Of a stretch of DNA of 64,000 nucleotides, positions 1,418 to 51,953 are shown in pieces; the stretch's first letter is position 1, and every line of letters begins with the position of its first letter. Position numbers and translations under genes: made by a program. The notes beneath the pieces are model-generated. The model was not told where the DNA came from. It searched no databases and saw nothing but the letters and a program-made list of their open reading frames with translations. Source of the stretch: Candidatus Omnitrophota bacterium (GTDB taxonomy: Bacteria > Omnitrophota > Gorgyraeia > JAFGHF01); the NCBI GenBank assembly GCA_020341815.1, contig CP070837.1:1368195-1432194 (forward strand). Reading direction: 5' to 3'.

Positions 1418-1615
1418 ATGAAGAAATTTATTGAGTCGTACACTGTAGAAGAATTAGCTGAGGCAGTTAAGCTTCATCCTTATACTATCAGACGTCTTTG
1501 TCGAGAAGGCAAGATTCCTTGCTTTAAGTTTGGGGGGCAATGGCGATTTGATATCGGGGAAATAGAAGAATGGCGAAGAAATCAAAACAAATCACAGCTT
1601 GCGCCAAATCGATAA
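1418..1615 (+). CDS. excisionase-family helix-turn-helix DNA-binding protein
   Basis: 65 aa. The YTVEELAEAVKLHPYTIRRLCREGKIP-F-FGGQWRF pattern matches MerR-superfamily excisionase/HTH_17 domains. Confidence 0.55.
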   Translation: MKKFIESYTVEELAEAVKLHPYTIRRLCREGKIPCFKFGGQWRFDIGEIEEWRRNQNKSQLAPNR

Positions 1616-2286: not shown

Positions 2287-2298
2287 AGGTTAAAGAGT

Positions 2299-4989
2299 AT
2301 GTCAGAGAGAGATTGGAACGAATATATAACACGTAAGAAATATATCGATAAGCTTCTTATCGAGTCTCAATGGGGACCTGTAGTTCAATATGAAGAGAAT
2401 AAGCGATACAAGCATGCATCAATTGAAGAATACCCCACAGAGACAGGTCCAGCAGATTATGCGCTTTTCCATAATAAAAAGCCTTTTTCCATTGTAGAAG
2501 GCAAGAAAGTTATCGTTGGTGTACAAAATGTTTTACAACAAGCTCAGCGCTATTCCAGAGGCTTCAAAGATAGTCCTTTTGCCTTTCACGAGTTCAAAGT
2601 TCCATTCATATACTCTACCAATGGAAAAATAATCTGGTTTCAAGATTTGCGCCATCCTGTGAATAGGTCACGTGAAGTAAAGAGATTTCATACACCCGAT
2701 GCCTTAGAAGAATTTCTATCACGCAACGAAGATGCAGCAAAAACTTGGCTTAAAAATACACCCATAGACAATCCTTATTTGCGCAATTATCAGAAGGAAG
2801 CCATAGGTAGTATTGAGAGAGCAATCCTTGAGAGAAAACGGAATATGCTTATCGCGATGGCAACTGGTACAGGTAAAACATTTACCATTATAAATTTAAT
2901 TTATCGGCTCATGAAGTCAGGATATGGCAAGCGTATACTATTCCTTGTTGATAGGCGTGCCTTAGCCGCACAAGCAGTAACAGCACTGGCAAGTTTTGAG
3001 GCAGAGCCTGGACTTAAATTTGACAAGATATACGAAGTATATAGCCAGCGTTTTAGACGCGAAGATCTTGATGAAGACATGAAGTTTGACCCAAAAGTTC
3101 TGCCCACGGAATATCTTACTAACCCTCAAGCTAAGCACAGCTTTGTATATGTATCCACAATTCAAAGAATGCGTATAAACCTTTTTGGCAATGCTGGCAT
3201 GTTTGGTCGTGCTACAGGTGATATGGAAGAGGAGGAGGGTGCTGAGAAGCTAGATATACCTATTCATGCCTTTGATGTAATTATTGCCGATGAGTGCCAC
3301 AGGGGTTATACCGCGCAAGAGGAAAGTAAATGGCGTGAGGCTCTAATGCACTTTGATGGCATTAGAGTAGGTTTAACCGCGACACCAGCAGCCCATACAA
3401 CAGCATTTTTCAAAGAAGTGGTTTATCGCTATGATTATGAGCGAGCAGTAAAAGAGGGATTTCTTGTTGATTATGATGCCGTAGCCATAAATTCAGATAT
3501 TACTATAAACGGCGTTTTCCTTAAACAAGGTGAAGAAATAGGACTAAAAGATACATCAACCGGCCAGTTAGTATTTGATATTTTAGAAGATGAAAGAGAG
3601 CTTGAGCCAGCAACCAATGAGAGCGAATGGACTGCTCCCGATAGAAACAAAAAGATAGTAAAAGAAATTAAAAAATATCTGCTTGACCAAGAGGAACAGC
3701 TTGGTCATTTTCCAAAGACTTTAATTTTTGCTAATAATGATATTGAGCATATATCACACTGCGATCAACTGGTGAACATATTGAGAGACGAGTTCAACCG
3801 AGGTGATTCCTTTGTTCAAAAGATAACTGGAAGCTCGACAGTTGACAGGCCGCTACAAAGAATCCGAGAGTTTAGAAACAGGCAAAATCCCGGTATTGTT
3901 GTTACTGTAGATATGCTTTCAACAGGTGTGGATATTCCAAAGGTCGAGAATATTATCTTTTTACGGCCTGTAAAATCAAGAATACTTTTTGAGCAGATGA
4001 TGGGCCGCGGGACACGCCTTTGTGAAGAGATTAACAAAACCCATTTTACTGTTTTTGATTGTTTCCGGGGAACACTTTTAGAATATTTTAGAAAAACCAC
4101 AGCCATTACAGCCGAAGCTCCCATTAAGCCAACCAGGATTATCAAAGAAGTGGTGCAGGCAATTGCTGATAATCAGGATAGAGCTTATAACATAAGTGTA
4201 TTATCCAAGCGCCTTCAGCGCATATCCAAAAACATAACTCAAGAAAGCAGAAGTCAATTTAACTATATCTTAGGTGATGTTGATATTGCAGAATTTGCTA
4301 AGAACCTTGGGGAAAGACTTGATAAGGATTGGGCTGGCACGATGCGTGTTTTACAGAGCGAAGGCTTCTTTAGTATGTGCGACAATTATCAACGACCCTT
4401 AAAGAAGCAAATTGTAGCCGAAGGAGCCGAAGATATCGTTTCTTCTGAGATTGTCTTTCGTGCAACGGATGGAAACAAGCTAAGGCCAGAAGATTATCTT
4501 AAACTCTTTGAGAAATTTGTTCGGGAAAATCCAGAGCATATCCAAGCTTTAGAAATACTAATAAACAAACCAAAAGATTTCCATGTCAGAGAATTAAAAG
4601 AATTACGGCTAAAACTATCAACCAAACCCGATGATTTAGTAGATAAATTTAAAGAACAGAATCTAAGGCGGGCATATAATAAAGAATTAGCTGATATTGT
4701 TTCAATTATAAGGCACGCTGCAAAAGGAGAGGAGCTTATTACAGCAGAATCAAGGATTGACAGAGCATTGGCAAAGGTTAAGGCGAGCCATAACTTTAGT
4801 GAAGCGCAGGAAAAATGGCTTGGCTTGATACGCCGCCATTTAATAGCCAACCTTCTTATAGAGAGAGACGATATAGACTCTTTGCCTATTTTTACACGCG
4901 AAGGATTAAATTATCGAAAATTAAATAAGATATTTAACGGTGAATTGGATGAAATATTACAGGAAATTAACGAGGCGGTATTAATATGA
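2299..4989 (+). CDS. hsdR: Type I restriction enzyme R subunit (endonuclease/helicase)
   Basis: 896 aa. N-terminal PD-(D/E)xK-like region (PADYALF..EGKK). Helicase motif I MATGTGKT and motif II DECHRG. 3' end overlaps hsdM by 4 nt. Confidence 0.85.
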   Translation: MSERDWNEYITRKKYIDKLLIESQWGPVVQYEENKRYKHASIEEYPTETGPADYALFHNKKPFSIVEGKKVIVGVQNVLQQAQRYSRGFKDSPFAFHEFKVPFIYSTNGKIIWFQDLRHPVNRSREVKRFHTPDALEEFLSRNEDAAKTWLKNTPIDNPYLRNYQKEAIGSIERAILERKRNMLIAMATGTGKTFTIINLIYRLMKSGYGKRILFLVDRRALAAQAVTALASFEAEPGLKFDKIYEVYSQRFRREDLDEDMKFDPKVLPTEYLTNPQAKHSFVYVSTIQRMRINLFGNAGMFGRATGDMEEEEGAEKLDIPIHAFDVIIADECHRGYTAQEESKWREALMHFDGIRVGLTATPAAHTTAFFKEVVYRYDYERAVKEGFLVDYDAVAINSDITINGVFLKQGEEIGLKDTSTGQLVFDILEDERELEPATNESEWTAPDRNKKIVKEIKKYLLDQEEQLGHFPKTLIFANNDIEHISHCDQLVNILRDEFNRGDSFVQKITGSSTVDRPLQRIREFRNRQNPGIVVTVDMLSTGVDIPKVENIIFLRPVKSRILFEQMMGRGTRLCEEINKTHFTVFDCFRGTLLEYFRKTTAITAEAPIKPTRIIKEVVQAIADNQDRAYNISVLSKRLQRISKNITQESRSQFNYILGDVDIAEFAKNLGERLDKDWAGTMRVLQSEGFFSMCDNYQRPLKKQIVAEGAEDIVSSEIVFRATDGNKLRPEDYLKLFEKFVRENPEHIQALEILINKPKDFHVRELKELRLKLSTKPDDLVDKFKEQNLRRAYNKELADIVSIIRHAAKGEELITAESRIDRALAKVKASHNFSEAQEKWLGLIRRHLIANLLIERDDIDSLPIFTREGLNYRKLNKIFNGELDEILQEINEAVLI

Positions 4990-6392
4990 GCGATATTGTC
5001 CAAAAATTGTGGGGTTTTTGCCATACCTTAAGGCACGATGGCATTGATTATGGTGACTACATCGAACAACTTACTTATTTACTTTTTCTTAAAATGGCAG
5101 AGGAAAGAGGCGCTGATATACCTAAAGAATATTCTTGGCGCGTGCTTCGTGAAAAATCAGGAACAGAACTGACTGATTTTTATACCGATGTTTTAAGAGG
5201 ACTAGGAAAACAAAAGAATACTTTGGGTCAAATCTATGGGGGTGCTATTTCAAGATTCAGCAATCCTGTTAATCTTAAAAAACTTATAAATCTTATAGAT
5301 GAAACAGAGTGGACCTCTTTGAATGTTGATGTAAAAGCCGCTGCATATGAGGGCCTTTTAGAGAAAAGCGCATCAGAGGGCAAAAAGGGAGCGGGTCAAT
5401 ATTTTACCCCAAGAATTTTAATCCAGTCTATCGTTCGTTGTATGAAACCCGATCCGCGCAAGATAAAAGACTTTACTATACATGACCCCGCGGCAGGCAC
5501 AGGCGGTTTCTTGGTCTGCGCTTATGAATGGCTTATTGAGCATACCAAGGGTGGCTTTGAGAGAGAAGATGCAAAACGGATTATGACAAAAACCTATTCT
5601 GGAACTGAGCTCGTTGCTCGGCCTCGCCGCCTTGCTCTTATGAACTTATATCTACATGGCATACATGGTGATATAGCTTTGGGCGATTCAATATACGAAC
5701 CTCCAAAAAGCACAAGATACTCATGCATACTTACTAATCCTCCCTTTGGCACAAAAGGTGCAAACCAAGCACCGACAAGAGATGATTTTACAGTTTCTAC
5801 CTCAAACAAACAGCTTAATTTTATCCAACATGTAGTAAATATTCTGAAGCCCGGCGGTCGCGCAGCAATGGTCCTACCTGATAACTGTCTTTTTGAAGAT
5901 AAAGCGGGGGAAGTTATCAAAAACTTAATGGAAGATTGTAATCTTCATACTGTATTACGTTTACCAAGAGGAACTTTTACACCATATAGTCAAGGTGTAA
6001 AAGCGAATGTGATATTTTTCCAGAAAGGTATGGCAACAGAAAATGTGTGGATATTTGATGCACGTTCAAATATTCCTTCGGTTACCAAGAAAGACCGCCC
6101 TTTATCTGCCACGCACTTTAAAGAATTCGAGAATTGCTACGGTAAAAATCCCGATGCTAGAGCTAAACGTGAAGATTTAGGGAAATCAGGCCGTTTTCGT
6201 TCTTTTCACATCGAACAAATAAAAGAACGCGGGTATAAACTTGATATTACATGGCTAAAGGATGAATCTCTGGATGATCCTGAAGATTTACCCGAACCGC
6301 AGGATTTGGCATCCGATGCTATTACTGAACTTGAAACGGTCGTGGATAACCTCAAAGAAATCGTAGCGGAGTTAGAGAATAATGGAGAATAA
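4986..6392 (+). CDS. hsdM: Type I restriction-modification N6-adenine DNA methyltransferase subunit
   Basis: AdoMet motif DPAAGTGGFL and catalytic NPPFG motif (ILTNPPFGTKG). HsdM N-terminal domain. Confidence 0.9.
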   Translation: MSDIVQKLWGFCHTLRHDGIDYGDYIEQLTYLLFLKMAEERGADIPKEYSWRVLREKSGTELTDFYTDVLRGLGKQKNTLGQIYGGAISRFSNPVNLKKLINLIDETEWTSLNVDVKAAAYEGLLEKSASEGKKGAGQYFTPRILIQSIVRCMKPDPRKIKDFTIHDPAAGTGGFLVCAYEWLIEHTKGGFEREDAKRIMTKTYSGTELVARPRRLALMNLYLHGIHGDIALGDSIYEPPKSTRYSCILTNPPFGTKGANQAPTRDDFTVSTSNKQLNFIQHVVNILKPGGRAAMVLPDNCLFEDKAGEVIKNLMEDCNLHTVLRLPRGTFTPYSQGVKANVIFFQKGMATENVWIFDARSNIPSVTKKDRPLSATHFKEFENCYGKNPDARAKREDLGKSGRFRSFHIEQIKERGYKLDITWLKDESLDDPEDLPEPQDLASDAITELETVVDNLKEIVAELENNGE

Positions 6393-7677
6393 GTTAAAGC
6401 AAGGATGGGTTAATAAAAGAATTGAGGAAATTTGTCGAATTATCAAGGATAAAGGGGCATCTGGAGAGGTCCCTTATTTAGAAATTGGAAATATAGATAT
6501 ATCCAAAAAGACCTATATCTTTACAAACAAACCCTCAGTCAAAGGATGTAAATGTGCTAAAAAAAATGATATTTTAATATCGCGGGTAAGACCTACAAGA
6601 GGAGCAATTGTAATTGTGAATGAAGATGAGCTTGCTGTTTCGTCTGCCTTTACTATTTTGCGTAATAATAGAAATAGTTTAACAGATAAATATTTATGGT
6701 TTTATTTGGCATGGAACCATAATTTTCTTAATTATTTAGGTGATAATTGCACTGGTACGATGTATCCAACAGTAGGAGAGAAAACGATTATAAATTATTT
6801 GATACCGCTTGCGCCCTTGAATGGACAAAAGCGCATTGTTAATAAATTGGATATGCTGTTAGCAAAACTCAAAGAGTGCCGGATTCGCCTTGAAAAAATC
6901 CCATTGTCCATAAAACGCTTTCGTCAATCAGTCCTAGCAGCAACTTACTCTGGCCGTCTTACTGCTGAGTGGCGAACGAATAAGCCCAGTACACCTACAG
7001 TTCTTGGTGGTAAGCAGAATGCAGTTCCAGTTAAAGACCTTATAGATATACCAAACACATGGCGATGGATAAAATTGTCGAATGTAGGCGAAATGAGTCG
7101 TGGTAAATCGAGGCACCGTCCACGGAATGCTTCTTTTCTCTTTGGTGGACCGTATCCTTTTATTCAAACAGGAGACATTGCTCAATCGGGAGGACGCATT
7201 TTAAAACACAAGCAGACTTATAGTGAAGACGGACTTGCCCAGAGTCGGCTTTGGCCAGCACAAACTGTATGTATAACAATTGCAGCCAATATTGCAGAAT
7301 CAGCAGTTTTGACCTATCCCGCATGTTTTCCTGATAGCGTTGTAGGTATTATTACTGATCGCTCTAAATGTTTACCAGAATACCTCGAGTATTTTATTAG
7401 AATAACTAAATCTGATCTCGCAACTTTCGCTCCTGCGACTGCTCAAAAGAATATAAATATAAAGATTTTAAGCGATGTCTATGTCCCTTTACCTCCGGTA
7501 GAGGAGCAAAAAGAGATTATTAATCGGGTTCAGTGTATGTTTAAAATAGCAGACCGAATCCTTACTCGTTATGCGAAGGCTAAAAGCCATATTGGTAACC
7601 TGTCCCAATCAATTCTCGCCAAAGCTTTCAGAGGCGAATTGGTTGAGCAGGATCCAAATGATGAGCCAGCAAATTAA
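6382..7677 (+). CDS. hsdS: Type I restriction-modification specificity subunit
   Basis: Two target-recognition-domain halves separated by a conserved central helix (LDMLLAKLKE) and a C-terminal conserved helix (SILAKAFRGELV). Overlaps hsdM by 11 nt. Confidence 0.8.
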   Translation: MENKLKQGWVNKRIEEICRIIKDKGASGEVPYLEIGNIDISKKTYIFTNKPSVKGCKCAKKNDILISRVRPTRGAIVIVNEDELAVSSAFTILRNNRNSLTDKYLWFYLAWNHNFLNYLGDNCTGTMYPTVGEKTIINYLIPLAPLNGQKRIVNKLDMLLAKLKECRIRLEKIPLSIKRFRQSVLAATYSGRLTAEWRTNKPSTPTVLGGKQNAVPVKDLIDIPNTWRWIKLSNVGEMSRGKSRHRPRNASFLFGGPYPFIQTGDIAQSGGRILKHKQTYSEDGLAQSRLWPAQTVCITIAANIAESAVLTYPACFPDSVVGIITDRSKCLPEYLEYFIRITKSDLATFAPATAQKNINIKILSDVYVPLPPVEEQKEIINRVQCMFKIADRILTRYAKAKSHIGNLSQSILAKAFRGELVEQDPNDEPAN

Positions 7678-7761
7678 TCCCGGGGACAGCTCACTTAATT
7701 CTCGATAGATTAGTTGTTTCAGGAATATACCCTACTTACACCTACACCGCGTAGGTGTAAG
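7676..7761 (+). repeat. family-A intergenic repeat copy 1 (AATCCCGGGGACAGCTCACTTAATTCTCGATAGATTAGTTGTTTCAGG) plus an 11-bp-stem hairpin (CTTACACCTAC / GTAGGTGTAAG) at 7735..7761
   Basis: Starts inside the hsdS stop codon. The same about 48-nt core recurs at 11213, 12571/12656, 15402 and 17343. The hairpin is followed by T-runs, so it is probably the terminator of the RM operon. Confidence 0.6.
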
Positions 7762-7883
7762 TAAAACACTTAATTTTCGACTTTTCGGATAAATAAGTAT
7801 TGTGTCCCTAGATTTTTGGAGTTATTGTGGGTGGGGAGTGGAGATGGTAGGTTAAATATACGTACTAGGCCTCAAAATTTATC

Positions 7884-7912
7884 TTGAGATTGTTTGTTTT
7901 TAGAGGTATAAT
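7884..7912 (+). promoter_or_regulatory. sigma70-like promoter TTGAGA-N17-TATAAT with no ORF behind it
   Basis: Near-identical sequence (TTGAGn-N17-...TTTTAGAGGTATAAT) recurs at 14711..14739 in front of a real gene. Here it is followed by a structured non-coding region of about 140 nt and then the tRNA-like element. Confidence 0.35.
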
Positions 7913-8059
7913 GAGAGAGGCACTTTTCGGTTTAAAAAGGGGTATTTCTTTTGGTGCGTGAAGTGTTGCACCTATTTAGTTTTGCCCGCCAAGGGACCAG
8001 TAAAGTAGGTCCTTTATATATATCCTTCTCCATGAGGAAAATATGTGGGGTGGGATCAT

Positions 8060-8132
8060 GGGCGTGTAGCTCAAGTGGATAGAGCGGCGTCCTGCTAAGA
8101 CGCTAGTTGGGGGTTCGAATCCCCCCACGAAA
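8060..8132 (+). tRNA. tRNA-like element or tRNA pseudogene: class I cloverleaf with GCU (Ser-type) anticodon loop, acceptor stem only 4 of 7 bp
   Basis: D-arm TAGCTCAAGTGGATAGAGC, anticodon stem-loop GCGTC-CUGCUAA-GACGC and T-arm GGGGGTTCGAATCCCCC are all canonical. The 5' acceptor GGGCGTG faces 3' CACGAAA, so positions 1-3 are unpaired. There is a 5-nt variable loop even though the anticodon is Ser-like. Confidence 0.4.
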
Positions 8133-8318
8133 TTAATACCCTTGTAGGGGTATATAAAATAGATGAGATAAATGATAAAGATATGATAGCAGTTTCTACT
8201 TTGAAAATAGGACACTTTCCCGAACAATTTGAGAAATGGTATATATCTTTAAAATTTGTCTAAGGATAACAAGAAAGTTAACATTCTCAGTAAATGGTGA
8301 TATTGTGGAGGCAAATAT

Positions 8319-8963
8319 ATGGAAAAACATAAGGATTTTTGGAACTTGATATTAGTTGGAAAATGGAATAAATATATTCTTTCTCCACAATGGGCAGCAA
8401 AAAATATTTTTGAAGAGCCAGAATTGCAAGTCGAATTTCCTTTGAATTTAGACTTTCCTCTAAGATATACCTCTTTAGAAAAAAATATAAGACTGCTTCC
8501 CGCAGAAGACAAAGTAATTTTTGTCCCATTGAAGCTAGATGATGAATGTCTTTCAGAAGTTGGAAAGCTCACAAATAAATTGTTCGAAATGTTACCACAT
8601 ACTCCGATGAGGGCATTTGGTATAAATTTTGGGTTTTCTGAAAAAGACAACACAGAGTTATACAAAGTGTTTAATGTAATAGACAATGCTAAGTTGGGAG
8701 AATTTAACTGCGAACTCAAGCAAACATGTATTATAAGGCGTACTGTTTATGATGAAAATAATTTAAATTTAAGATTAACATTAAAAGGTAATGAGGTATT
8801 ATTTGATTTTAATTTTCACTATGATGTAAAAAATGCTGTGGAAGCAAAAGAAAAATTAAAAGATAATATAGTCAAAAACAAAAATGCTGCAGAGAAACTC
8901 TTGCAGGAGGTATACGGTCTTAGCTACGATGATATAGAGCAAAAGAAAAGGGGGGTAGTATGA
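8319..8963 (+). CDS. hypothetical protein, first gene of an AT-rich four-gene operon
   Basis: Strong RBS GGAGG 9 nt upstream. About 30% GC. No recognisable motif. Stop overlaps the next start (ATGA). Confidence 0.55.
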   Translation: MEKHKDFWNLILVGKWNKYILSPQWAAKNIFEEPELQVEFPLNLDFPLRYTSLEKNIRLLPAEDKVIFVPLKLDDECLSEVGKLTNKLFEMLPHTPMRAFGINFGFSEKDNTELYKVFNVIDNAKLGEFNCELKQTCIIRRTVYDENNLNLRLTLKGNEVLFDFNFHYDVKNAVEAKEKLKDNIVKNKNAAEKLLQEVYGLSYDDIEQKKRGVV

Positions 8964-9262
8964 ATATGGTAGGAACTTCAAATCTATATCTATATTCAAG
9001 TTCTTTTCCAATTCAAGCAAGCATAGGGGATGTTGAAGAATATACAGTAAAATCTTTGACAGAAGAAAAAAAAGATATACAAACTAGTAATGATTTAAGT
9101 ATAACACGATTTGATGCTATAGAATTTCGGACTGCCTATTGGACAAAAGACACCCCGCTTAGTATTAATCTTGAACTTAATTTTGATAATATAGAAAAGC
9201 GCAGATTACTATATGATTTGAATACTGAAGAAAAAGATATAAATGCCACATTTCACATATAA
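8960..9262 (+). CDS. hypothetical small protein (100 aa)
   Basis: Translationally coupled to the flanking genes. AT-rich. No motif recognised. Confidence 0.45.
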   Translation: MNMVGTSNLYLYSSSFPIQASIGDVEEYTVKSLTEEKKDIQTSNDLSITRFDAIEFRTAYWTKDTPLSINLELNFDNIEKRRLLYDLNTEEKDINATFHI

Positions 9263-10121
9263 AAGACCTACCACACAATTATCCCAAGGTGACATACTCG
9301 CAAAGACAGAAGACATAAAAAGAGTTCTGGAAAAAGTCCACCCTCATTATCTCAAAGAAGATTACCTCTATTTTATTGTATTAACGCAATCCTGCGATTT
9401 AGTTCGTAGAAAAGGCGATCGTTGCATTGCTCAATACATTACACTGGCTGCTATTCGTCCTCTAGAGCTTTTAATTGCAAGACAAATAAGAAAATACCAA
9501 AAAGATATTATTGAAATAAAAGGAAAATTTGTTGCCCGTTCAAAACAAAACCTGTTAAATAATTTTATTACTCGGTTATTAAATAACAATGAACCAGACT
9601 ATTTTTATCTACACGAAGATGCAACTATGGGCTTTCCTGAATCTTGTGTAGCTTTTTTGAGATTGTCAATCGCACTTAAAGCAAGCCTACATTATGAAAA
9701 TTGTCTAAAAGCCAAAAAGCTGGAGCTCGATGATAATTTTAAGGCCAAACTGGGATGGCTTGTTGGAAATATATATTCGAGGGTAGGTACTGATGATTGG
9801 GTTCCGGACTACAGGGATGAAGGTCAATTTAATAAAATGATACAAGAGATTTTAAATGCAAACTGCCTTTGGATAGATAATATAAAAGAATTTTTGAGAC
9901 AGGTTCGTTCAAAATATACTTCTGAGCAAATTGAAAGAATGAGAGAAACGGAATTGCAAAAATTGGTACAGACTATTAGAATCCCTACTAAAAAAGAACA
10001 GATTTTAAATCGATTACAAGAGTTGCTACACCAAGATACAACTATAACAGACAAGAGTGTTGTTGGTAAAGTTATTAAAAGGATCAAAAACGACACAACG
10101 ATATCTGGCTTGTTAAAATAA
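9243..10121 (+). CDS. hypothetical protein (292 aa)
   Basis: Overlaps the upstream gene by 20 nt. Has a conserved-looking LSQGDIL...YFIVLTQSCDL segment. No family assigned. Confidence 0.5.
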   Translation: MPHFTYKRPTTQLSQGDILAKTEDIKRVLEKVHPHYLKEDYLYFIVLTQSCDLVRRKGDRCIAQYITLAAIRPLELLIARQIRKYQKDIIEIKGKFVARSKQNLLNNFITRLLNNNEPDYFYLHEDATMGFPESCVAFLRLSIALKASLHYENCLKAKKLELDDNFKAKLGWLVGNIYSRVGTDDWVPDYRDEGQFNKMIQEILNANCLWIDNIKEFLRQVRSKYTSEQIERMRETELQKLVQTIRIPTKKEQILNRLQELLHQDTTITDKSVVGKVIKRIKNDTTISGLLK

Positions 10122-10183
10122 GCATTCTAACTAATTTATATAAAAATAAAAGCTAAAAAACTTTGAGAAATGGAGATAGCACT

Positions 10184-11161
10184 ATGTCATTAGCAATAAA
10201 TACAACAACGCCAGAAGGAATTGTTTTAGCAACTGATAGTAGACAATCTTATCGTAATCGTAAAGGAATGGCCCGAATAGGAAGTGATAATGCTTCTAAG
10301 CTTTTTCAGCTAAACAAAAGAGTTGGAGTTGCCGTAACTGGGTTAGCATTTTTGCCTGAAAATGGAGTACCTAAAAATATAAGTAAGTTTATTGAAGAAT
10401 TTAAACGGGAAACTGAAGTAGAAAAATTAGATGTCAAAGATATAGCTGAAAAATTACATTTTCTTTTTAACGAAAAATATAGATGGGAAGAACAATTAGA
10501 TAAAATACCAGAAAAGATTAAGGGTGATCTTCAAAAACAAGGCTGCGAAGTCCTAGAAATTAAAAAAGAACAATATAGAGTTAAATTCCGTTTCAAAGAT
10601 CCTCAAGGTAATGTAAAAGATGGTGTAGGTGGAGTAGATATGATAATTCTTTTAGTTGCAGGATATAATAAAAATGGTTCTCACGAGGTCCATATTTGTT
10701 ATATTCCAGGAGAAATTCAAAAGAAAAGAGATAGCAGAGAAAGAGGCAAAGAATATGGTGCTTCTTGGATTGGGCAAAGCGATGTAGTGATACGGATTAT
10801 TTTGGGTTGTGATAGTAGGGTAAGAAATATTAAGTTTGTTAATGAAGCAATTCAAAAATATAATATAGAAGAGATAAATAAACAACTAAGAAACTTACAA
10901 TATAACATTCAATGGGGCACAATGGCTCTTCAGGATGCTGTTGATTTCTGTGTTCTGATGATTCAGACTACTTCAGCTATTCAACGGTTCTCGGATGGCA
11001 TTCTAGCCGACCTTGGAGCCATGCCAGGTGTTGGTGGTTCTGTTGATGTTGCAGTAATAACACCTGATAAAGGATTTGTTTGGCTAAGTAAAAAGACGTT
11101 AAAAGCTGGAAAGGCTGAGATAGATTTAGATAAAGAATCCTATTCAGATAAGCTAGAATAG
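10184..11161 (+). CDS. proteasome beta-subunit / HslV-like Ntn-hydrolase domain protein with a C-terminal extension of unknown function
   Basis: The N-terminus reads ...AIN-TTTPEGIVLATDSRQSY...ASKLFQLNKRVGVAVTGLA. This matches the proteasome beta/HslV signature: N-terminal Thr nucleophile after a short propeptide, then (V)(L)A(A/T)DSR, then the ...GVA.(T/S)G strand. RBS GGAGAT lies before the ATG at 10184; the ORF track starts at 10163. Confidence 0.5.
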   Translation: MSLAINTTTPEGIVLATDSRQSYRNRKGMARIGSDNASKLFQLNKRVGVAVTGLAFLPENGVPKNISKFIEEFKRETEVEKLDVKDIAEKLHFLFNEKYRWEEQLDKIPEKIKGDLQKQGCEVLEIKKEQYRVKFRFKDPQGNVKDGVGGVDMIILLVAGYNKNGSHEVHICYIPGEIQKKRDSRERGKEYGASWIGQSDVVIRIILGCDSRVRNIKFVNEAIQKYNIEEINKQLRNLQYNIQWGTMALQDAVDFCVLMIQTTSAIQRFSDGILADLGAMPGVGGSVDVAVITPDKGFVWLSKKTLKAGKAEIDLDKESYSDKLE

Positions 11162-11191
11162 TTGTTTTAATAGAACTTCCAACTTTCCACC

Positions 11192-11310
11192 CAATCCCTA
11201 AGAATCCCTAAGAATTCCGGGCATAATTCGCGGGAATTCCAGGGACAGCTCACTTAATTCCCGATAGATTAGTTGTTTCAGGGATTATGCTTTACTTACA
11301 CCTACGAGGT
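11192..11310 (+). repeat. family-A intergenic repeat copy 2, with a CCCTAAGAAT tandem duplication and AATTCCnGGG direct sub-repeats
   Basis: AATTCCGGGCATAATTCGCGGGAATTCCAGGGACAGCTCACTTAATTCCCGATAGATTAGTTGTTTCAGGGATTATGCTTTACTTACACCTAC. It is colinear with copy 1 through the CTTACACCTAC half-site. Confidence 0.6.
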
Positions 11311-11333
11311 GGTAATTGAAAACAGGAGGTATA

Positions 11334-12593
11334 ATGTTACAATCACCACAGCAGACGAACATTTCATTTGACGGTCTGGGCATCGCTCCCAGGATACTTG
11401 AAATATTGGACCGGATGCGGTTTACTCATCCTACGACCATTCAACACAAGGCTATTCCTATCGGAATAGAAGGAAAGGATGTTATCGGTATCGCTCAGAC
11501 CGGAACCGGTAAAACGCTTGCTTTTGCTATCCCCATTATCCAGCGCCTTTCCCAGAGAAAAAAAGGACGCGCTTTAATTCTTGCGCCTACCAGGGAGCTT
11601 GCTGTCCAGATTAACGAGACGTTTGAAAAAATAGCCCCGTCATTCGGCATAAAGACGGTTGTTATTATAGGGGGAGCGTCTATGCATATGCAGCTGGCGG
11701 CATTGAGAAAGAACCCCCGCGTTATAATAGCGACACCCGGACGGCTTGTCGATCACATAGGCCGGCGCACAGTCTTTTTAGCGGACACAAATGTTTTAGT
11801 GCTTGATGAGGCCGATCGTATGTTTGACATGGGGTTTATGCCGCAGATAGAACGCATCCTCAAGGTTGTTCCGAAAAATAAACAGACGATGCTCTTTTCG
11901 GCGACAATCTCCGGGGAAGTTGTGAAAATAGCAGCCGCCTATATGAAGCTTCCTGTTCATGTCGAAGTCGCGCCATCCGGAACTGCCGCCGAAGGCGTAA
12001 TTCAGGAATTATTTATTGTTAAAAAGAACGCAAAGAAACGGCTCTTATTGAAATTGCTCCAGGGGTATCACGGAGCGGTGCTTGTCTTTTCCCGGACGAA
12101 GATGGGCGCTGGAAGGATTGCCAGATTTATCAGAGAGGCAGGCCATAGTGCCGCTGAGATACATTCCAATCGCTCGCTTAACCAGCGCAAACAAGCGCTT
12201 GAGGGTTTTAAGTCCGGCAGATATAGAGTGCTTGTTGCTACCGATATAGCGGCCAGGGGTATAGATGTTATCGGTATAGAGCTTGTTCTTAACTATGATA
12301 TCCCCGATGATACAGAAAATTACGTGCATCGCATCGGGCGCACAGGACGCGCCGGCCACAAAGGGCGGGCCATCTCTTTCGCCACGCCTGAGCAAGGCGG
12401 CGATGTCCGCAATATAGAAAGACTTATCAAAACCGCTTTGCCTATAGCCGAGCACCCCGAGTTTCCCCGGGAAAGATTTACTCAGCATTCTTCAAAGGGC
12501 TCGCAGTCTCGTCAGTTTCACGGCAGGAGAAGACATAAGCAAAGAAGACGAAAGAGGCCCCGTCGCTCCGAATCCCGGGGACACAACACTTAA
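11334..12593 (+). CDS. DEAD-box ATP-dependent RNA helicase (RhlE/DeaD-like)
   Basis: Q-motif region followed by motifs AQTGTGKT, PTRELA, DEAD (VLDEADRM), SAT and HRIGRTGRAG, plus a basic C-terminal tail. RBS AGGAGG lies before the ATG at 11334. The stop sits inside family-A repeat copy 3. Confidence 0.85.
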   Translation: MLQSPQQTNISFDGLGIAPRILEILDRMRFTHPTTIQHKAIPIGIEGKDVIGIAQTGTGKTLAFAIPIIQRLSQRKKGRALILAPTRELAVQINETFEKIAPSFGIKTVVIIGGASMHMQLAALRKNPRVIIATPGRLVDHIGRRTVFLADTNVLVLDEADRMFDMGFMPQIERILKVVPKNKQTMLFSATISGEVVKIAAAYMKLPVHVEVAPSGTAAEGVIQELFIVKKNAKKRLLLKLLQGYHGAVLVFSRTKMGAGRIARFIREAGHSAAEIHSNRSLNQRKQALEGFKSGRYRVLVATDIAARGIDVIGIELVLNYDIPDDTENYVHRIGRTGRAGHKGRAISFATPEQGGDVRNIERLIKTALPIAEHPEFPRERFTQHSSKGSQSRQFHGRRRHKQRRRKRPRRSESRGHNT

Positions 12594-12683
12594 TTCCCGA
12601 TTTCATACATAAAAGGGCCATTATTTGCCAAAGCTAAGATACGAAGTAGATCCGCATAATAGATTAGTTGTTTCAGGAACCGA
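12571..12683 (+). repeat. family-A repeat copy 3, split into two parts (12571..12601 and 12656..12683) by a 54-nt insertion
   Basis: The left part overlaps the helicase stop. The right part (ATAATAGATTAGTTGTTTCAGGA) encodes residues HNRLVVSG of the next ORF. The insertion carries that ORF's TTG start. Confidence 0.55.
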
Positions 12684-13632
12684 TAAAAAACTGCCTCTGG
12701 GGCGGTTTCGCAGGGTTTTTGATGGAAGATTTAAGATTGGGCCGGGTAATACCTTAATATATCATATCAAAGGCCCGATGTATGGCCTTGGGCCAGAAGA
12801 AAAAACGCCTCATCAGGTAAAGTTAAGGGGTAAATGGGCCTTGACCAAGAATCATGATTTGGTGCTCACACTTGATAAATGGCGCAGGCAGAGGATAGGA
12901 GATGAGCTTACCCTGCAGGGTGAAGTAATAGCTGCAGAGGCAAGCTCATTACTTTTTGCCGTTACAACAAGGTCAGAAAAGGATCTTGCCTCAACATATC
13001 TTTTGAAACTGCAGGGCATCTGGCAGGCAGATGAGCACAATAGGCTTATATTCAGGGTTAAGAGGGGCCAGGGAAGGCACGATACCTTAATTTTTGAGGG
13101 TATCTGGGAGATTAATAAGCATCATAGGATAATATACCACTATAAAAAAGCCCAACTCACACGAAAAAAGACATTAGATAAGACTATAACCTTTAAAGGC
13201 TATTGGGATATAGTTAGACGAAACAGGCTATCTTATAACTTAAGCCTGGATAATAAGTCAGGATTTGATTTTAAGACAGGCTTAGGCCGCCTGGATAAAG
13301 GTTATATAAAATATGAGATAGGTATAGGGGTAACTCCTGTTAGGCGCATCGTAATCCTATTTGGTAAATGGAAGATAAAGAAAAATACCGGCCTGTTATT
13401 TGAAATAGAGTATGAGAAAGGAAAGCCTCAAGCCATAATCTTTGGGGCTGAGGCCAGATTAACAAAACAGGATAAGATTGAATTTAAGCTTAAGAATATA
13501 TTCCATAAAGACTTAGGGATGGAGCTTAAGCTATCCAGAAGGCTTATTAAAGGCGATGGTGAAGCCTTCCTTAAGCTGCTTAGGGATAAAGAAGAAGTTA
13601 GTGTGTATGTGGGTGGGGCATGGAGATGGTAG
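12625..13632 (+). CDS. hypothetical internally repetitive protein (about 40-aa repeats with an N/H-R-L/I-I/V-F/Y ... G-W pattern)
   Basis: 335 aa. TTG start, so the start is uncertain. Recurring segments: DPHNRLVVSG, DEHNRLIFRVKRG, NKHHRIIYHYKK, VRRNRLSYNLSLD. Confidence 0.45.
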   Translation: MPKLRYEVDPHNRLVVSGTDKKLPLGRFRRVFDGRFKIGPGNTLIYHIKGPMYGLGPEEKTPHQVKLRGKWALTKNHDLVLTLDKWRRQRIGDELTLQGEVIAAEASSLLFAVTTRSEKDLASTYLLKLQGIWQADEHNRLIFRVKRGQGRHDTLIFEGIWEINKHHRIIYHYKKAQLTRKKTLDKTITFKGYWDIVRRNRLSYNLSLDNKSGFDFKTGLGRLDKGYIKYEIGIGVTPVRRIVILFGKWKIKKNTGLLFEIEYEKGKPQAIIFGAEARLTKQDKIEFKLKNIFHKDLGMELKLSRRLIKGDGEAFLKLLRDKEEVSVYVGGAWRW

Positions 13633-13655
13633 ATTAGGAAAGGAGGGAATTCCCG

Positions 13656-14675
13656 ATGAAGCGATTAGCGGTATTTTGCGATGGGACTTGGCAGGACTTA
13701 AAAACAGATTACCCCACTAATGTTGTTAAATTAATGCAAGCCATGAAAAATAAAGACCGCGATGGCGTTGCCCAAATTGCGTTTTATGACGCGGGCATTG
13801 GCACAGCCGGATGGTATGATAAGCTCGCTGGCGGGGCGTTGGGGAAAGGTATCGATACGAATATTCTTGATTGTTACCGGTTTCTAATCTTGAATTATGA
13901 GCCCGGTGACGAGGTGTATCTTTTTGGCTTCAGCCGCGGCGCCTATACAGTCCGCTCGCTTGCCGGCCTTATTTACTGTTCCGGCTTACCTCAGCGCCAA
14001 CATATTCGCAGGATACACGAGGCATATCAGTTGTATCGTGATCCCGCCGTAAAACCAAGCAGTGAGAAGGCGCGGAATTTTAGGCTGGCCTATGGCGAGA
14101 ATATTGCTATCACTCTTTTAGGATGTTGGGATACTGTCGGAGCTTTGGGTATTCCAAGCCACTTGCTTTTTAGCAGACGCATCAATAAAAAATACCAATT
14201 CCACGATACAAATCTTAATCGCAAGATCAGTCATGCATTACACGCTGTATCGATTGATGAACCGCGTAACGCATTTAACGTTACGCCTATGCATAGAAGC
14301 GAGGGTGCCGTCGAACAGGATATTGAAGAGGTTTGGTTTCCCGGCGACCATGGCGCAGTAGGCGGAAACAAGGATAAAGCCGGTCTTTCCGATATAACTT
14401 TACAATGGATGATTGAGCAGATAAAGATTTGCAATCTCGGACTTTCCTTTGACGCCGGATACGTCCAGCCGCCGCTTAATCCCAATCACGCCATACCGTT
14501 TAAGATAACAATGTCGCCGTTTGACCGAATAGTCTGCGGACGGATTGTGCGCACAATTACTGCAGAGTTTAAGGATATTCACGAAAGCGCCAAAAAACGC
14601 TGGCACGATTGTCTGGATTATCGCCCCAATAATTTAGTGGATAAATTTAAGGAAGAACTTGACAGGTGGATATAG
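13656..14675 (+). CDS. DUF2235 alpha/beta-hydrolase, T6SS Tle1-type phospholipase family
   Basis: VFCDGTWQD N-terminus and GxSxG nucleophile motif LFGFSRGAYTVRSLAG, which are characteristic of DUF2235/Tle1. Confidence 0.6.
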   Translation: MKRLAVFCDGTWQDLKTDYPTNVVKLMQAMKNKDRDGVAQIAFYDAGIGTAGWYDKLAGGALGKGIDTNILDCYRFLILNYEPGDEVYLFGFSRGAYTVRSLAGLIYCSGLPQRQHIRRIHEAYQLYRDPAVKPSSEKARNFRLAYGENIAITLLGCWDTVGALGIPSHLLFSRRINKKYQFHDTNLNRKISHALHAVSIDEPRNAFNVTPMHRSEGAVEQDIEEVWFPGDHGAVGGNKDKAGLSDITLQWMIEQIKICNLGLSFDAGYVQPPLNPNHAIPFKITMSPFDRIVCGRIVRTITAEFKDIHESAKKRWHDCLDYRPNNLVDKFKEELDRWI

Positions 14676-14694
14676 GCACAGCAACCGTTTGTCC

Positions 14695-14728
14695 GGCCTC
14701 AAGATAACACTTGAGGCCGTTTTGTTTT
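14695..14728 (+). terminator. rho-independent terminator (CGGCCTCAAG / CTTGAGGCCG, followed by GTTTTGTTTT)
   Basis: 10-bp perfect stem, 6-nt loop, T-rich tail. The 3' arm doubles as the -35 box of the next promoter. Confidence 0.6.
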
Positions 14729-14739
14729 AGAGGTATAAT
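14711..14739 (+). promoter_or_regulatory. sigma70-like promoter TTGAGG-N17-TATAAT; the ATG at 14746 is only 6 nt past the -10 box (leaderless or near-leaderless transcript)
   Basis: Duplicate of the promoter at 7884..7912. There is no room for an RBS before 14746. Confidence 0.4.
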
Positions 14740-14745
14740 TGAAAT

Positions 14746-15420
14746 ATGAATCCCTCCGAATTAAAGAAAAAGACATTGATATGGACTGTCGTGTCGTTTT
14801 TGATGATGGGGCTGCTTTTGTTTTTGCCTGCGGGAACCGTGTTTTATTGGCAGGCCTGGGTGTATATGGCGATTCTATTTGTGCCTATGCTATTTGCCAT
14901 CGGGTATTTACTTAAATATGATCCTGTGTTATTGGAGCGCAGGTTGAGATTGAAGGAAAAGCTGGTGCTTCAGGATAGGCTCATCAAATGGGCCTATTTG
15001 ATCTTTGGGTTGTTTCTTGTGATTCCGGGCCTGGATCAGCGTTATCATTGGTCGAAGGTGGCGCCGGCAGTGGTGGTGCCGGCAGAAATATTGGTTTTAG
15101 CCGGATATATATTATGTTTATGGGTGTTTAAAGAGAATCCCTATGCCTCGCGCATTGTTGAGGTAATGCCGGAGCAGAAGGTGGTTACTACCGGCCTGTA
15201 TGCGCTGGTGCGCCATCCTATGTATCTGGGGGCATTAGTCATGTATGTTTTTACGCCGCTTGCTCTGGGCTCTTACTGGGCGCTGTTACTTATTCCTTTC
15301 TTGACAATTTTTCTGGTGCTCCGAATCCTCGATGAGGAAAAATTATTATTGCGCCAGTTGAGAGGTTATTGGGAATATACCCAAAAGACCAGGTATCGTT
15401 TAATCCCGGGCATCTGGTAA
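14746..15420 (+). CDS. isoprenylcysteine carboxyl methyltransferase (ICMT) / phospholipid methyltransferase family membrane protein
   Basis: Multi-TM protein with VTTGLYALVRHPMYLGALVMY and a C-terminal EE..L motif, typical of ICMT/PEMT families. The stop sits inside family-A repeat copy 4. Confidence 0.6.
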   Translation: MNPSELKKKTLIWTVVSFLMMGLLLFLPAGTVFYWQAWVYMAILFVPMLFAIGYLLKYDPVLLERRLRLKEKLVLQDRLIKWAYLIFGLFLVIPGLDQRYHWSKVAPAVVVPAEILVLAGYILCLWVFKENPYASRIVEVMPEQKVVTTGLYALVRHPMYLGALVMYVFTPLALGSYWALLLIPFLTIFLVLRILDEEKLLLRQLRGYWEYTQKTRYRLIPGIW

Positions 15421-15440
15421 TAATTCCAGGGACACAATTC
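15402..15440 (+). repeat. family-A repeat copy 4 (AATCCCGGGCATCTGGTAATAATTCCAGGGACACAATTC)
   Basis: Same AAT(C/T)CCGGGCAT...AATTCCAGGGACA architecture as copy 2. Overlaps the stop of the ICMT gene. Confidence 0.5.
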
Positions 15441-15468
15441 TGTATCTAGTATAAAAGGCAAGGAGGAA

Positions 15469-15759
15469 ATGACCGAGTTCATTGTAAATGAAATTGTTGA
15501 CGGCGACACTTTTAAGGTTAAAAATGGCTGGAAATGGAACGAAAAAAGAGGTGATATTATTCGCCCTACGGGGTATAATACCCCTGAGAGAGAGGAGCCG
15601 GGATACGAGCAGGCGAAGCAAAAGCTAAAGAATCTTATCTTAGGGAAAACGATAGATATGAAAAGCGCTAAAGTTATTGATGAATGGGGAAGGTTAGTAG
15701 CGGATATTTATTACAACGGCAAAAATATCGCTGACTATTTCCCCGAGTATAAAGATTAA
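15469..15759 (+). CDS. staphylococcal-nuclease (SNase/thermonuclease)-like small protein
   Basis: V-DGDTFKV ... R..GYNTPE ... GK-hydrophobic ... D-WGR-VADIY matches the SNase core. Strong RBS AAGGAGG. Confidence 0.55.
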   Translation: MTEFIVNEIVDGDTFKVKNGWKWNEKRGDIIRPTGYNTPEREEPGYEQAKQKLKNLILGKTIDMKSAKVIDEWGRLVADIYYNGKNIADYFPEYKD

Positions 15760-15787
15760 GAACCGGAACCCGGGAAAGGAAGTGACT

Positions 15788-17329
15788 ATGGAAAATAAGC
15801 CTTGGTATATGAGAGTGTTATTAGCTATACAGAGTTTCTTTACGGACATCATAGGTACTATTTTTAAGAAGATCTTTCGCATAAATGTCGGCGCGAGTGA
15901 TAACGGCAACGGTGGCACAAACGCTGATGACACTGACACTGACACTGACACTGACACTGACACCGATACTGATACCGATACTGATACTATGATTCAGTGG
16001 CTGAAGACCAATGTTTTTGCAGATGGTATGCCCCGCAGTTTTGAAGTCCCGAAAGATTGGAGTGCAATTGGCGAGCCTGATACGGTGGAAGGGGTTATCG
16101 AAAGGATTATTATTAATAATAGCATCAGTACTTACGATGGCGCTACCTGGCAGATAGCTTTAGCTGTGGAAGGCGGAAAAGATAATTTAGCTGCCGCCGA
16201 TAAGTTTACCGAGGTTCTTAACAGTGGCAGCTGGTCTGAGCTGGAAATCATACGCGGCTACAAAGAATTTATCTATAGGGGTAAAAGATTGCCTGAGCAA
16301 AATGCCTATTTCTTCAGGCTTATTTCCCCTAACTGGCAGCAGCCTGACCCGTTAGATGGTAAGACCCATATTAAGGGATATCCCGGGCCAGATTATGATC
16401 GTGACCTTATTGTTTGGGCCGACTGGAAGCCGATTACAGGGGAAAATGCCTGGGTTATTATAGGTGCATTACAAACTGCCTATAAGAAATATAATGGAGA
16501 GGTTCCCTTAGACAAAGACGAGTTCAAATTGGCAGAAAGCATTATTCCGGCAATGGAGGCTCTGCAGATAGATATGGGAGCTATTTTGCATGCGCCGGAA
16601 GGTACTGACGGCAAGGACCCCGATGAGATCTCTACCGAAAATGACCTTTCGGCCTATGCCGCCTTGAAGATGATGCATAAAGTTACTAATGACTCTAGAT
16701 ATGATAGAATGATGCAGGGCCTGAGGAGCTATTTCATAGAATATGCTTTTGACAAAAGTAATAATATCTTCTATCAAGGGGGAAAATTCAAAAATAATAA
16801 CTTTAGCCCTAACCTAACCTTTGCGGTTGATTGTCAAACATGGGGTATTATGGTATTGACCCCTAAGACAATAGATGAATGGTTTAATGAAGAAGGCTTG
16901 GCCTATAAAATATGGAAGAATACCAAGAGACGTGCCGGCTATTATGATGTAAACGGTGTTTTAAGAGGGGTAGGTTATAGCGATGAAAAAGATATCTTAA
17001 GTGTAGAGTGGACGGCAGGCGCCATTTTTGCTGCTCATGCCTTAGCCGATTATTACAAGGATAGTCGGGGGGAGGAAGCTGCCAGGGATGCTCGTACTAT
17101 GAGGGAGGGTATCGATGAACTGAAATTGAAAATTAACAGCAAAGAGACCGCCTACTATTATGCTAATAAACGGTATTATATACCCTTTGGTTGGTGGGCT
17201 AACCCTATACTCAGCACCACTTCTACGGCTTGGGTATACTTTGTAGATAAAGGCTTTGATCCTTTCTTGCTTGGAGGAAGAAAGGATATTTCTATTTCAA
17301 TTCCCAATTTTTCGAATTCCTTAAAATAA
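15788..17329 (+). CDS. hypothetical protein with an N-terminal (Thr-Asp)10 low-complexity tract
   Basis: ORF-track start 15782 is GTG. ATG at 15788 has RBS GGAAAGGAAG. No catalytic motif identified. Glycosidase-like alpha-toroid is possible but unsupported. Confidence 0.5.
   Translation: MENKPWYMRVLLAIQSFFTDIIGTIFKKIFRINVGASDNGNGGTNADDTDTDTDTDTDTDTDTDTDTMIQWLKTNVFADGMPRSFEVPKDWSAIGEPDTVEGVIERIIINNSISTYDGATWQIALAVEGGKDNLAAADKFTEVLNSGSWSELEIIRGYKEFIYRGKRLPEQNAYFFRLISPNWQQPDPLDGKTHIKGYPGPDYDRDLIVWADWKPITGENAWVIIGALQTAYKKYNGEVPLDKDEFKLAESIIPAMEALQIDMGAILHAPEGTDGKDPDEISTENDLSAYAALKMMHKVTNDSRYDRMMQGLRSYFIEYAFDKSNNIFYQGGKFKNNNFSPNLTFAVDCQTWGIMVLTPKTIDEWFNEEGLAYKIWKNTKRRAGYYDVNGVLRGVGYSDEKDILSVEWTAGAIFAAHALADYYKDSRGEEAARDARTMREGIDELKLKINSKETAYYYANKRYYIPFGWWANPILSTTSTAWVYFVDKGFDPFLLGGRKDISISIPNFSNSLK
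15926..15988 (+). repeat. hexanucleotide microsatellite (GACACT/GATACY)x10 encoding (TD)n
   Basis: Read directly from the sequence. The unit is in-frame (6 nt), so expansion or contraction changes linker length without shifting the frame. Confidence 0.8.
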
Positions 17330-17372
17330 TAAGGACGGGAAAAATTCCGGGGATAGCTTACTTAATTCCCGG
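17323..17372 (+). repeat. family-A repeat copy 5 (AATTCCGGGGATAGCTTACTTAATTCCCGG), preceded by the 16-mer AAAATAATAAGGACGG
   Basis: The 16-mer also occurs at 21610 and 23593 inside terminator hairpins. The repeat overlaps the stop of the 15788..17329 gene. Confidence 0.5.
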
Positions 17373-51738: not shown

Positions 51739-51953
51739 ACCCCGCCCTTCCAAAGATTATGTCTTGCATAAGAGATATAGATGAAGTTGATAAAAAGAAG
51801 GACAAGGGTAAAGATTTAACATTGGGATAAGATGAAAGGAAGAGCGGGGTGAAAAAGATACTGGTTACAGGCGGGGCCGGGTTTACCCCGCCCCTCTTTA
51901 AATTGTGGCTTTGGTTAATTAAATATAGGTTGGTTGTTTAGGATAGCGATACA
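51736..51953 (+). repeat. polysaccharide-locus palindromic repeat copy 1 (CCCCGCCCTTCC...GGAAGAGCGGGG) plus a 5' gene remnant (GTGAAAAAGATACTGGTTACAGGCGGGGCCGGGTTT = VKKILVTGGAGF)
   Basis: Begins on the stop codon of the upstream gene. The core is about 85% identical to the copies at 55072 and 63880. It is followed by a truncated SDR N-terminus and then the intact rmlB-like gene. Confidence 0.6.

Follow-up and report, generated by a model that had tools for sequence, protein, structure and literature searches.

We analysed a stretch of 64,000 nucleotides (hereafter the window) from the genome of a Candidatus Omnitrophota bacterium (contig CP070837.1, positions 1,368,195 to 1,432,194), in which a short repeat recurs among the genes of an accessory region. 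The repeat has a core of 26-29 nt, AATTCCGGGGACA-NNNN-ACTTAATTC, and six copies of it were identified between 7.6 and 17.4 kb, in a region that includes hsdS, a proteasome-beta-like gene, a DEAD-box helicase gene and an ICMT gene. The original prediction for this stretch had read the repeat as the punctuation of a cassette array, comparable to integron attC sites or to islands punctuated by miniature inverted-repeat transposable elements (MITEs), with the responsible enzyme lying outside the window.

Copies of the repeat in the window

The repeat family is real at the places originally described, since a 34-mer, a 19-mer and two sub-motifs were each matched far above any shuffle, and repeat finding on the window grouped four of the copies as one family (D7). 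The proposed unit length of 50-90 nt has to be shortened, as the part common to all copies is only 26-29 nt; about 71 nt of similarity (89% identity) is common to copies 1 and 2 only. Searching with an nhmmer profile built from 145 distinct instances outside the window, we found + strand copies at 7680-7703, 11234-11262, 12575-12598, 15422-15438 (partial, 5' half only) and 17343-17370, and a degenerate inverted copy on the - strand at 7794-7808 which had previously been overlooked. The same search gave no significant copy in the other 54 kb of the window.

Copy 1 (AATCCCGGGGACAGCTCACTTAATTCTCG; 7676-7704, + strand) overlaps the hsdS stop codon (7675-7677) by two bases at its 5' end, and its similarity to copy 2 extends to 7745. 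Its degenerate inverted partner (7794-7812, - strand; reverse complement AATCTAGGGACACAATACTTA) has a profile E value of 0.008, and the dimer formed by the two contains a perfect 13-bp stem in the CTTACACCTAC...GTAGGTGTAAG region at 7733-7763. Copy 2 (11235-11263, + strand) is the best match to the family profile (E 3e-8), with a similarity to copy 1 that reaches 11305, and is immediately preceded by four truncated 5' stutter units (AATCCCTAAG, AATCCCTAAG, AATTCCGGGCAT and AATTCGCGGG; 11193-11234, + strand). AATTCC sub-repeats about 10 nt apart had been described for copies 2 and 4. They are present at copy 2, where five AAT(T/C)CC starts at 11193, 11203, 11213, 11225 and 11235 give spacings of 10, 10, 12 and 10 nt, while at copy 4 the actual spacing is 20 nt. 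Copy 4 (15402-15438, + strand; E 0.003) consists of a truncated unit (AATCCCGGGCAT...) over the stop codon of the ICMT gene (15418-15420) followed by a partial unit (AATTCCAGGGACACAAT) which is the 5' half only and does not have the ACTTAATTC half.

Copy 3 (12571-12599, + strand) encodes the last seven codons and the TAA (12591-12593) of the DEAD-box helicase gene, which is of the RhlE/CshA-like type. As had been noted, this copy is split by an insertion, although the insertion (12602-12658, + strand) measures 57 nt and not 54 nt. It parts copy 3 from a local right-hand extension (ATAGATTAGTTGTTTCAGGAA; 12659-12679, + strand) that belongs to window copies 1-3 only and lies outside the universal core. 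The reported translation of the right half of this copy as part of the next open reading frame (ORF; peptide HNRLVVSG) hinges on a TTG start at 12625, with the first in-frame ATG 51 codons later. Copy 5 (AATTCCGGGGATAGCTTACTTAATTCCCG; 17343-17371, + strand) lies 13 nt past the stop codon of a 515-aa ORF. The central tetranucleotide of the window copies is of two types, GCTC/GCTT and CAAC/CAAT.

Each copy had been said to begin at or inside the stop codon of the upstream gene. This is so for three of the five main copies (those at hsdS, the DEAD-box helicase and the ICMT gene) and not for copies 2 and 5, which lie 31-73 nt and 13 nt past the upstream stop codon, respectively. Stop-codon overlap is not a property of the repeat, given family-wide frequencies of 7.0% and 6.4% against 6.1% at random TAA sites. 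Some copies overlap or supply stop codons because there is little room in the spacers and TAA occurs on both strands of the core, and copies are found near stop codons because any intergenic insertion in a compact genome falls near one.

DNA folding against shuffled sequences revealed no conserved hairpin in single repeat units, neither attC-like nor of the classic REP type. The z-scores of copies 1-5 were +1.07, -1.59, +1.53, -0.08 and -2.09, and that of the consensus unit was 0.05, so that only copies 2 and 5 fold somewhat better than shuffles. The region 7670-7815, which comprises copy 1 and its inverted partner, is predicted to fold into one long hairpin (dG -20.1 kcal/mol, z -3.6, with none of 200 shuffles as good), and the two copies form a REPIN-like dimer. 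Family-wide, a perfect inverted partner is located within 150 nt in 27 of 169 instances, and adjacent copies have no preference for co-orientation (29 direct versus 30 inverted). Strand bias relative to guanine-cytosine (GC) skew, as expected for targeting of the lagging-strand template, was not significant (46 to 29, p = 0.064). No terminator-like hairpin with a T-run was found at the window copies. An Rfam scan of the window had a tRNA-like element as its sole match, and a permissive scan of copy 2 returned nothing meaningful. The earlier observation that the window holds no integrase or transposase was borne out by a Pfam scan, in which none of about 60 ORFs carried such a domain.

Spread of the core and its link to a Y1 transposase gene

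The pattern AATYCCNGGGAYANNNNACTTAATTCYCG was scanned against one genome per species and was found at 22 loci, each in a different genome, from at least 8 phyla and with unrelated flanks, compared with an estimated ~0.03 matches expected by chance. The hosts include Elusimicrobia, Anaerolineae, sphingomonads and another alphaproteobacterium, Gammaproteobacteria, Aminicenantes and Omnitrophota, as well as Nitrospirae, a bacterium of the Planctomycetes-Verrucomicrobia-Chlamydiae (PVC) group, and Delta- and Zetaproteobacteria. In a metagenome scan with a version of the core in which 21 bases were specified, the core was present in at least 120 contigs. The conserved part, taken over 168 distinct instances, reads (G)AATTCC-G-GGGACA-[C/G]NN[T]-ACTTAATTC, with sharp bounds, random flanks and a variable central tetranucleotide. 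Most genomes carry one or few copies in arbitrary contexts. Outside loci hold between 1 and 8 copies, and clusters of 6-8 copies within 8-12 kb occur elsewhere (L005 has 8 within 8 kb, and L137 has 6 within 11.6 kb). A feature of phages was ruled out, as viral contigs gave a single core match. Family-wide, what we found is essentially "an ordinary REP family", the outcome that the original prediction had set against its own proposal.

There was no neighbour gene common to the first 22 genome loci. In three loci (L051, L103 and L141) the motif stands just upstream of an ORF starting MARIARVVIPN.PHH..QRGNRRQ, and in five (L051, L045, L077, L046 and L103) an ORF of about 220 aa has the motif on its upstream side and the reverse complement of the motif on its downstream side. 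The stop codon of the flanked ORF is within the downstream copy (...AAT TAA GT...). The encoded protein scored 50.7 bits against Pfam Y1_Tnp (cut-off 23), 65 bits against NCBIfam REP_Tyr_transpos, which is under the cut-off of 80, and 21 bits against NCBIfam transpos_IS200 (cut-off 55); among solved structures, it is closest to TnpA-REP of E. coli (4ER8; E 4.6e-5). Its alignment, over a length of about 220 aa, contains the motifs NHVH, WQGRF and RY[VI]ExNP. Altogether, 25 ORFs in 20 of 143 loci matched the flanked Y1 protein. Within the Omnitrophota themselves, the Y1 gene of L155 is preceded by full stuttered copies of this core and followed by inverted ones, and L152 has a partial stuttered copy upstream of the Y1 gene only. 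On sequenced plasmids, Y1 genes were only 40-44% identical and there was no sign of this subfamily. None of the best 120 family matches came from the contig of the window. More distant Y1 genes at four loci (L118, L134, L043 and L130) were found to have inverted repeats of their own of like build (GGGGACAGACACC..., GGGGTCAGGTCTTGAATTAT and GGGGTCACATCTTGATTTGTGAATT). Across the wider Y1 family, repeat and enzyme appear to co-vary.

Truncated units accumulate asymmetrically at the core. This stutter was found upstream (5') in 25 of 165 instances and downstream in 4 of 165, and the units all begin at AATTCC, with varying end points, as also seen at window copies 2 and 4 and in L155. We know of no mechanism that predicts an asymmetric 5' stutter. 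It hints at the cut site of an enzyme or at a start point of copying, and we speculate that it could arise if cutting or copying that sets out from a constant 5' boundary were aborted again and again. A model in which AATTC is the target site of a 21-nt mobile unit was left as speculation, since tandem full copies are 3-9 extra bases apart and do not abut.

The core is also a landing site for other small insertions, of 57 nt in the case of window copy 3 and of 115 nt in sediment contigs. In six of these contigs (L034, L055, L072, L128, L063 and L093) the core carries an unstructured insert of about 115 nt bounded by CTTAATTCC ... CTTTAATTCC, and L144 looks like the empty site of this insert. 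The resulting composite of about 150 nt is repeated in direct orientation around single genes in the sediment contigs; a 145-nt composite gave no fold.

The recurrence of 21 of the 26 positions across phyla could also be explained by a host function, whereby the core would be a selected binding site for a transcription factor or nucleoid protein, or a signal at the 3' end of genes or mRNAs, and the transposase link would be secondary. The AATTCC boxes are phased by 10-12 or 21 nt and the copies are intergenic and located after genes, both of which would suit such a role; the search pattern itself fixed the 21 recurring positions. On the other hand, the Y1 transposase is the only neighbour gene common among the loci, Rfam provided no match, hairpins with a T-run are missing at the copies, and in most genomes the copies are few and their contexts arbitrary. 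We therefore regard a host function as highly unlikely.

The accessory region and its genes

The copies sit in an accessory patchwork region, and this patchwork has ordinary explanations. The original prediction had placed the copies at the boundaries of blocks of very different GC content. One such block exists, at 8319-11161 with a GC content of 0.33, and the others are not strongly deviant: the hsd genes have 0.39, the DEAD-box helicase 0.495 and other blocks 0.40-0.47, set against a bulk value of 0.458 in the window. On its left side, the low-GC block is bordered by no repeat copy. Its limit there is marked by a broken tRNA-like element (8063-8129, + strand; Rfam tRNA 49 bits, not called by ARAGORN), since GC content drops from 0.49 to 0.27 directly after it. 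The element has an anticodon loop CUGCUAA (GCU) and yet a short variable arm, and the acceptor is replaced after CACG, so that the 3' acceptor strand is broken (CACG|aaatt). A position just after a tRNA is a classic site for an acquired island, and the tRNA-like element is the probable insertion point of the low-GC block. No second copy of its 3' end was found in the window. The right end of the block lies near the stutter of copy 2.

To the left, the segment ~1418-7677 (+ strand) carries a small excisionase-like ORF (HTH_17) and RadC, along with all three genes of a type I restriction-modification system (hsdR, hsdM and hsdS), with a GC content of about 0.39, and is probably the left part of an acquired island. 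Within the low-GC block, three overlapping ORFs at 8319-10121 (+ strand; 214, 100 and 292 aa; GC 0.29-0.34) are located upstream of the proteasome-like gene. They had no match in Pfam, NCBIfam, PADLOC or PHROGs and no counterpart beside the proteasome-like gene elsewhere. The proteasome-beta-like (Ntn) gene itself (10184-11161, + strand; 325 aa, GC 0.34) has more than 1100 homologues, of which the best 120, from Omnitrophota, Korarchaeota, Desulfobacterales, Atribacteria and phyla of the candidate phyla radiation (CPR), show 73-93% identity. At the DNA level the gene matches L158/L159 with 82.8% identity over precisely the ORF, its flanks are non-homologous and its neighbours differ everywhere, and there is no copy of the repeat near the gene in the other loci. 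The predicted fold is a loose match to a 20S proteasome subunit (pLDDT 72.5, Foldseek E ~1e-7, TM-score ~0.35-0.4), and no family name was obtained from Pfam, NCBIfam, PADLOC or PHROGs. This is a single, very conserved gene that moves between domains. For an alanine-dehydrogenase-like gene in the neighbourhood, the nearest homologues are at 77-78% protein identity and have neither neighbours nor gene order in common.

Local duplication has also shaped the region. Four collinear pieces join 7676-7912 to 12571-14739, comprising the core, the right-hand extension, a 29-nt piece and a terminator-plus-promoter piece. The last two (7826-7854 and 7868-7912, together 7826-7912 on the + strand) recur in order at 13608-13636, where the 29-nt piece overlaps the end of ORF 12625-13632, and at 14695-14739, where the terminator-plus-promoter piece is upstream of the ICMT gene. 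As judged from sequence, the spacer downstream of hsdS (7676-7912) looks like a collapsed duplicate of 12571-14739 minus its two genes, ORF 12625-13632 and a Tle1-like (DUF2235) gene, and the extra similarity of copies 1-3 therefore needs no longer mobile unit. Could such events account for the window copies altogether, as what was left after a single ancestral intergenic region had undergone segmental duplications and deletions? Together with the collinear pieces, the right-hand extension of copies 1-3, which is missing from the universal core, would fit this explanation. We nevertheless consider it quite unlikely, as copies 4 and 5 and the inverted copy have no extension, the central tetranucleotides are of two types, and the dispersal of the core in hundreds of unrelated loci means that the family as a whole is mobile.

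The arrangement of the region also bears on the cassette idea, namely that an enzyme acting in trans, possibly Y1 itself, cuts two co-oriented copies and moves the block between them, as at attC or pdif sites. Five co-oriented copies at gene junctions of an accessory region of mixed GC content could be expected of such a system, as could the sediment composites of repeat plus 115-nt insert that surround single genes in direct orientation, and by analogy with IS608 chemistry it is conceivable that a Y1 enzyme which works on a single strand excises the DNA lying between direct copies. Set against this are single units with no attC-like or other conserved fold, a window that encodes no integrase, family-wide orientations that are balanced between direct and inverted, a low-GC block whose left edge is at the tRNA-like element, and the proteasome-like gene, which occurs elsewhere at 83% DNA identity with no repeat nearby. 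We thus consider a cassette system quite improbable.

Several other repeats were noticed in the window. Two ORFs of 496 and 167 aa (21673-23163 and 23649-24152, both - strand), neither with a Pfam match, contain tandem coding repeats of 33 nt (11 aa). Both are followed by a similar terminator-like hairpin (TAAAATAATAAGGACGG...), which is also found at 17319. An intergenic repeat of about 120 nt with CCCCGCCC / GGGCGGGG boxes (families D8 and D10) occurs three times (51734-51852, 55070-55187 and 63878-63998), within a sugar-nucleotide / sulfate-activation gene cluster.

Assignment to the TIRtron class

The known elements with which the repeat can be compared differ from it in defined ways. Similar to the REP/REPIN-RAYT systems (E. 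coli TnpA-REP, 4ER8; Pseudomonas REPINs), it is a short intergenic repeat located just after genes, it is associated with a single-copy Y1 gene with inverted flanks, and its inverted dimers fold as long hairpins. However, the single unit is not palindromic, the protein is under the REP_Tyr_transpos cut-off, and the core crosses phyla whereas REP families are lineage-specific. REPs have a 5' GT[AG]G, and no GTAG or GTGG was found beside the core in the position matrix of 168 instances. A classic REP thus fails on the hairpin, the 5' GT[AG]G and the transposase cut-off.

In arrays of integron attC sites, too, genes of mixed origin share one orientation and have a repeat at their 3' end, and the enzyme need not be adjacent. 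attC sites have a conserved bulged hairpin and a variable sequence, whereas here the sequence is conserved without a fold and family-wide there is no orientation constraint. No IntI was found among the roughly 60 window ORFs, the repeats are accompanied by no attI or Pc, and a reading of the window copies gave no GTTRRRY / RYYYAAC pair. A match to attC sites is not supported, since single units have no significant fold and it is the sequence that is conserved, and this, together with the presence of the same 26-nt core in hundreds of unrelated contexts, speaks against attC-like cassette sites.

With IS200/IS605 elements and their miniature derivatives (PATEs), the repeat shares the transposase superfamily and presumably the single-strand chemistry. 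The ends of IS200/IS605 are distinct left and right subterminal hairpins on one strand, in contrast to the inverted copies of one unstructured sequence found here, and the Y1 gene here, unlike those of IS200/IS605, is typically single-copy. IS200/IS605 ends were ruled out by the unstructured inverted ends and by the transpos_IS200 score. The Xer/dif (pdif) site is a 28-nt sequence in which a 6-nt spacer separates two 11-nt arms that are imperfect inverted repeats of each other. pdif was ruled out as well, as the core has its two AATTCC boxes in direct orientation, at a distance of 21 nt, and not inverted.

The closest match is to "TIRtrons", described by Di Nocera et al. (2013, PMC3733652) as RAYT-like genes between terminal inverted repeats (TIRs) that are not REP hairpins. 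In that description, GGGGWSAS is common to many TIRs, and "moderately abundant" TIR families are found singly, in dimers or in clusters (PMC3733652). The TnpA-Y1 subclass 2.1, with the motifs NHVH, W[EQ] and YIELNP and a median length of 238 aa, has been equated with the "TIRYT" of Di Nocera et al. (2013) and ranks second in size among the Y1 transposase subclasses, behind the IS200-type subclass 1.1; that survey found no repeats near subclass 2.1 genes at all (Quentin et al. 2018, PMC6006769). RAYT group 1 has the widest taxonomic spread, flanking 16-mers at about 12 per replicon and some IS-like behaviour (Bertels et al. 2017, PMC5581495).

The window repeat fits the TIRYT class on every feature tested. 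GGGGWSAS is present in copies 1 and 2 (GGGGACAG) and in copy 3 (GGGGACAC), and copy 5 (GGGGATAG) is one base off. Singles, dimers and clusters all occur, with the six window copies including one inverted dimer. Inverted flanks were found in other genomes, including Omnitrophota L155, and not inside the window. The associated protein has the HUH motif (NHVH), W[EQ], Y..(L/x)NP and a length of ~220-240 aa. The points in common with TIRtrons/TIRYTs are thus a ~220-240 aa Y1 HUH gene, non-hairpin inverted flanks with GGGGWSAS, dispersed copies at moderate copy number and a wide, patchy taxonomy. TIRYTs are also called RAYT group 1 or TnpA-Y1 subclass 2.1. The family described here differs in that its core is nearly unchanged in at least 8 phyla and at least 120 metagenome contigs, that the 5' stutter is marked, and that the cognate gene was not found in the window. 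The core AATTCCGGGGACA-N4-ACTTAATTC is not quoted in the available text of the TIRtron/TIRYT papers, and a literature search for the core sequence gave no match in the text it covered.

Taken together, the window repeats are very probably dispersed, non-coding copies of the terminal inverted repeat of a TIRtron, belonging to a known and little-studied class. The suggestion that the repeat is related to mobile DNA and served by an enzyme outside the window is hence supported, and the likeness to MITE-punctuated islands was close; attC-like cassette capture is not upheld. The TIRtron would consist of a ~220-aa Y1 HUH tyrosine transposase gene between two inverted 26-29 nt copies. The window copies would be non-autonomous, and we infer that a TIRYT elsewhere in this Omnitrophota genome, or once there, most likely spread them in trans. 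Single-strand cleavage and joining are established for IS608 and ISDra2 and have been shown in vitro for the TnpA-REP of E. coli. On the model of IS200/IS605 TnpA and TnpA-REP, the copies may have moved by cleavage and rejoining of single-stranded DNA. They would settle in short intergenic spacers, cluster, pair as inverted dimers and gather truncated 5' copies. With TAA on both strands, the core provides the stop of the TIRYT gene and, in this window, that of the DEAD-box helicase gene. The extra similarity of copies 1-3 would reflect local segmental duplication.

Some observations weigh against this assignment. The window contains no Y1/TIRYT ORF, and a cognate enzyme in this genome is unproven. 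The core is near-identical across phyla though the transposases are only 47-59% identical to the reference, which is unusual for REP-like repeats, with the caveat that 21 positions were set in advance by the search pattern. The simple model does not predict that the five main copies all point the same way and stay within the accessory region. Furthermore, the searched literature contained no experimental transposition of any TIRYT-type repeat, and the class is little mentioned there.

A bolder possibility is that the TIRYT core is no mere selfish sequence and serves in several phyla as a sequence-specific single-strand DNA site for cutting and rejoining by Y1 enzymes. Co-oriented copies could then allow the intervening genes to be excised and re-inserted in a form of cassette shuffling free of hairpins and integrases. 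This seems quite improbable to us. If it were true, the stacked 5'-truncated units, the composite arrays of the sediment contigs and the co-oriented cluster of the window would be traces of such activity.

In conclusion, the "cassette array" label for this region should be replaced by an annotation as TIRYT-type repeat copies, which explains why the end of the DEAD-box helicase is encoded by a repeat. TIRYTs (subclass 2.1) are a subclass without biochemistry. With the core, a candidate substrate of 26 nt with exact bounds is now available, whose conservation extends from Alphaproteobacteria to Omnitrophota and Elusimicrobia, and this makes assays of binding and cleavage easy to design.

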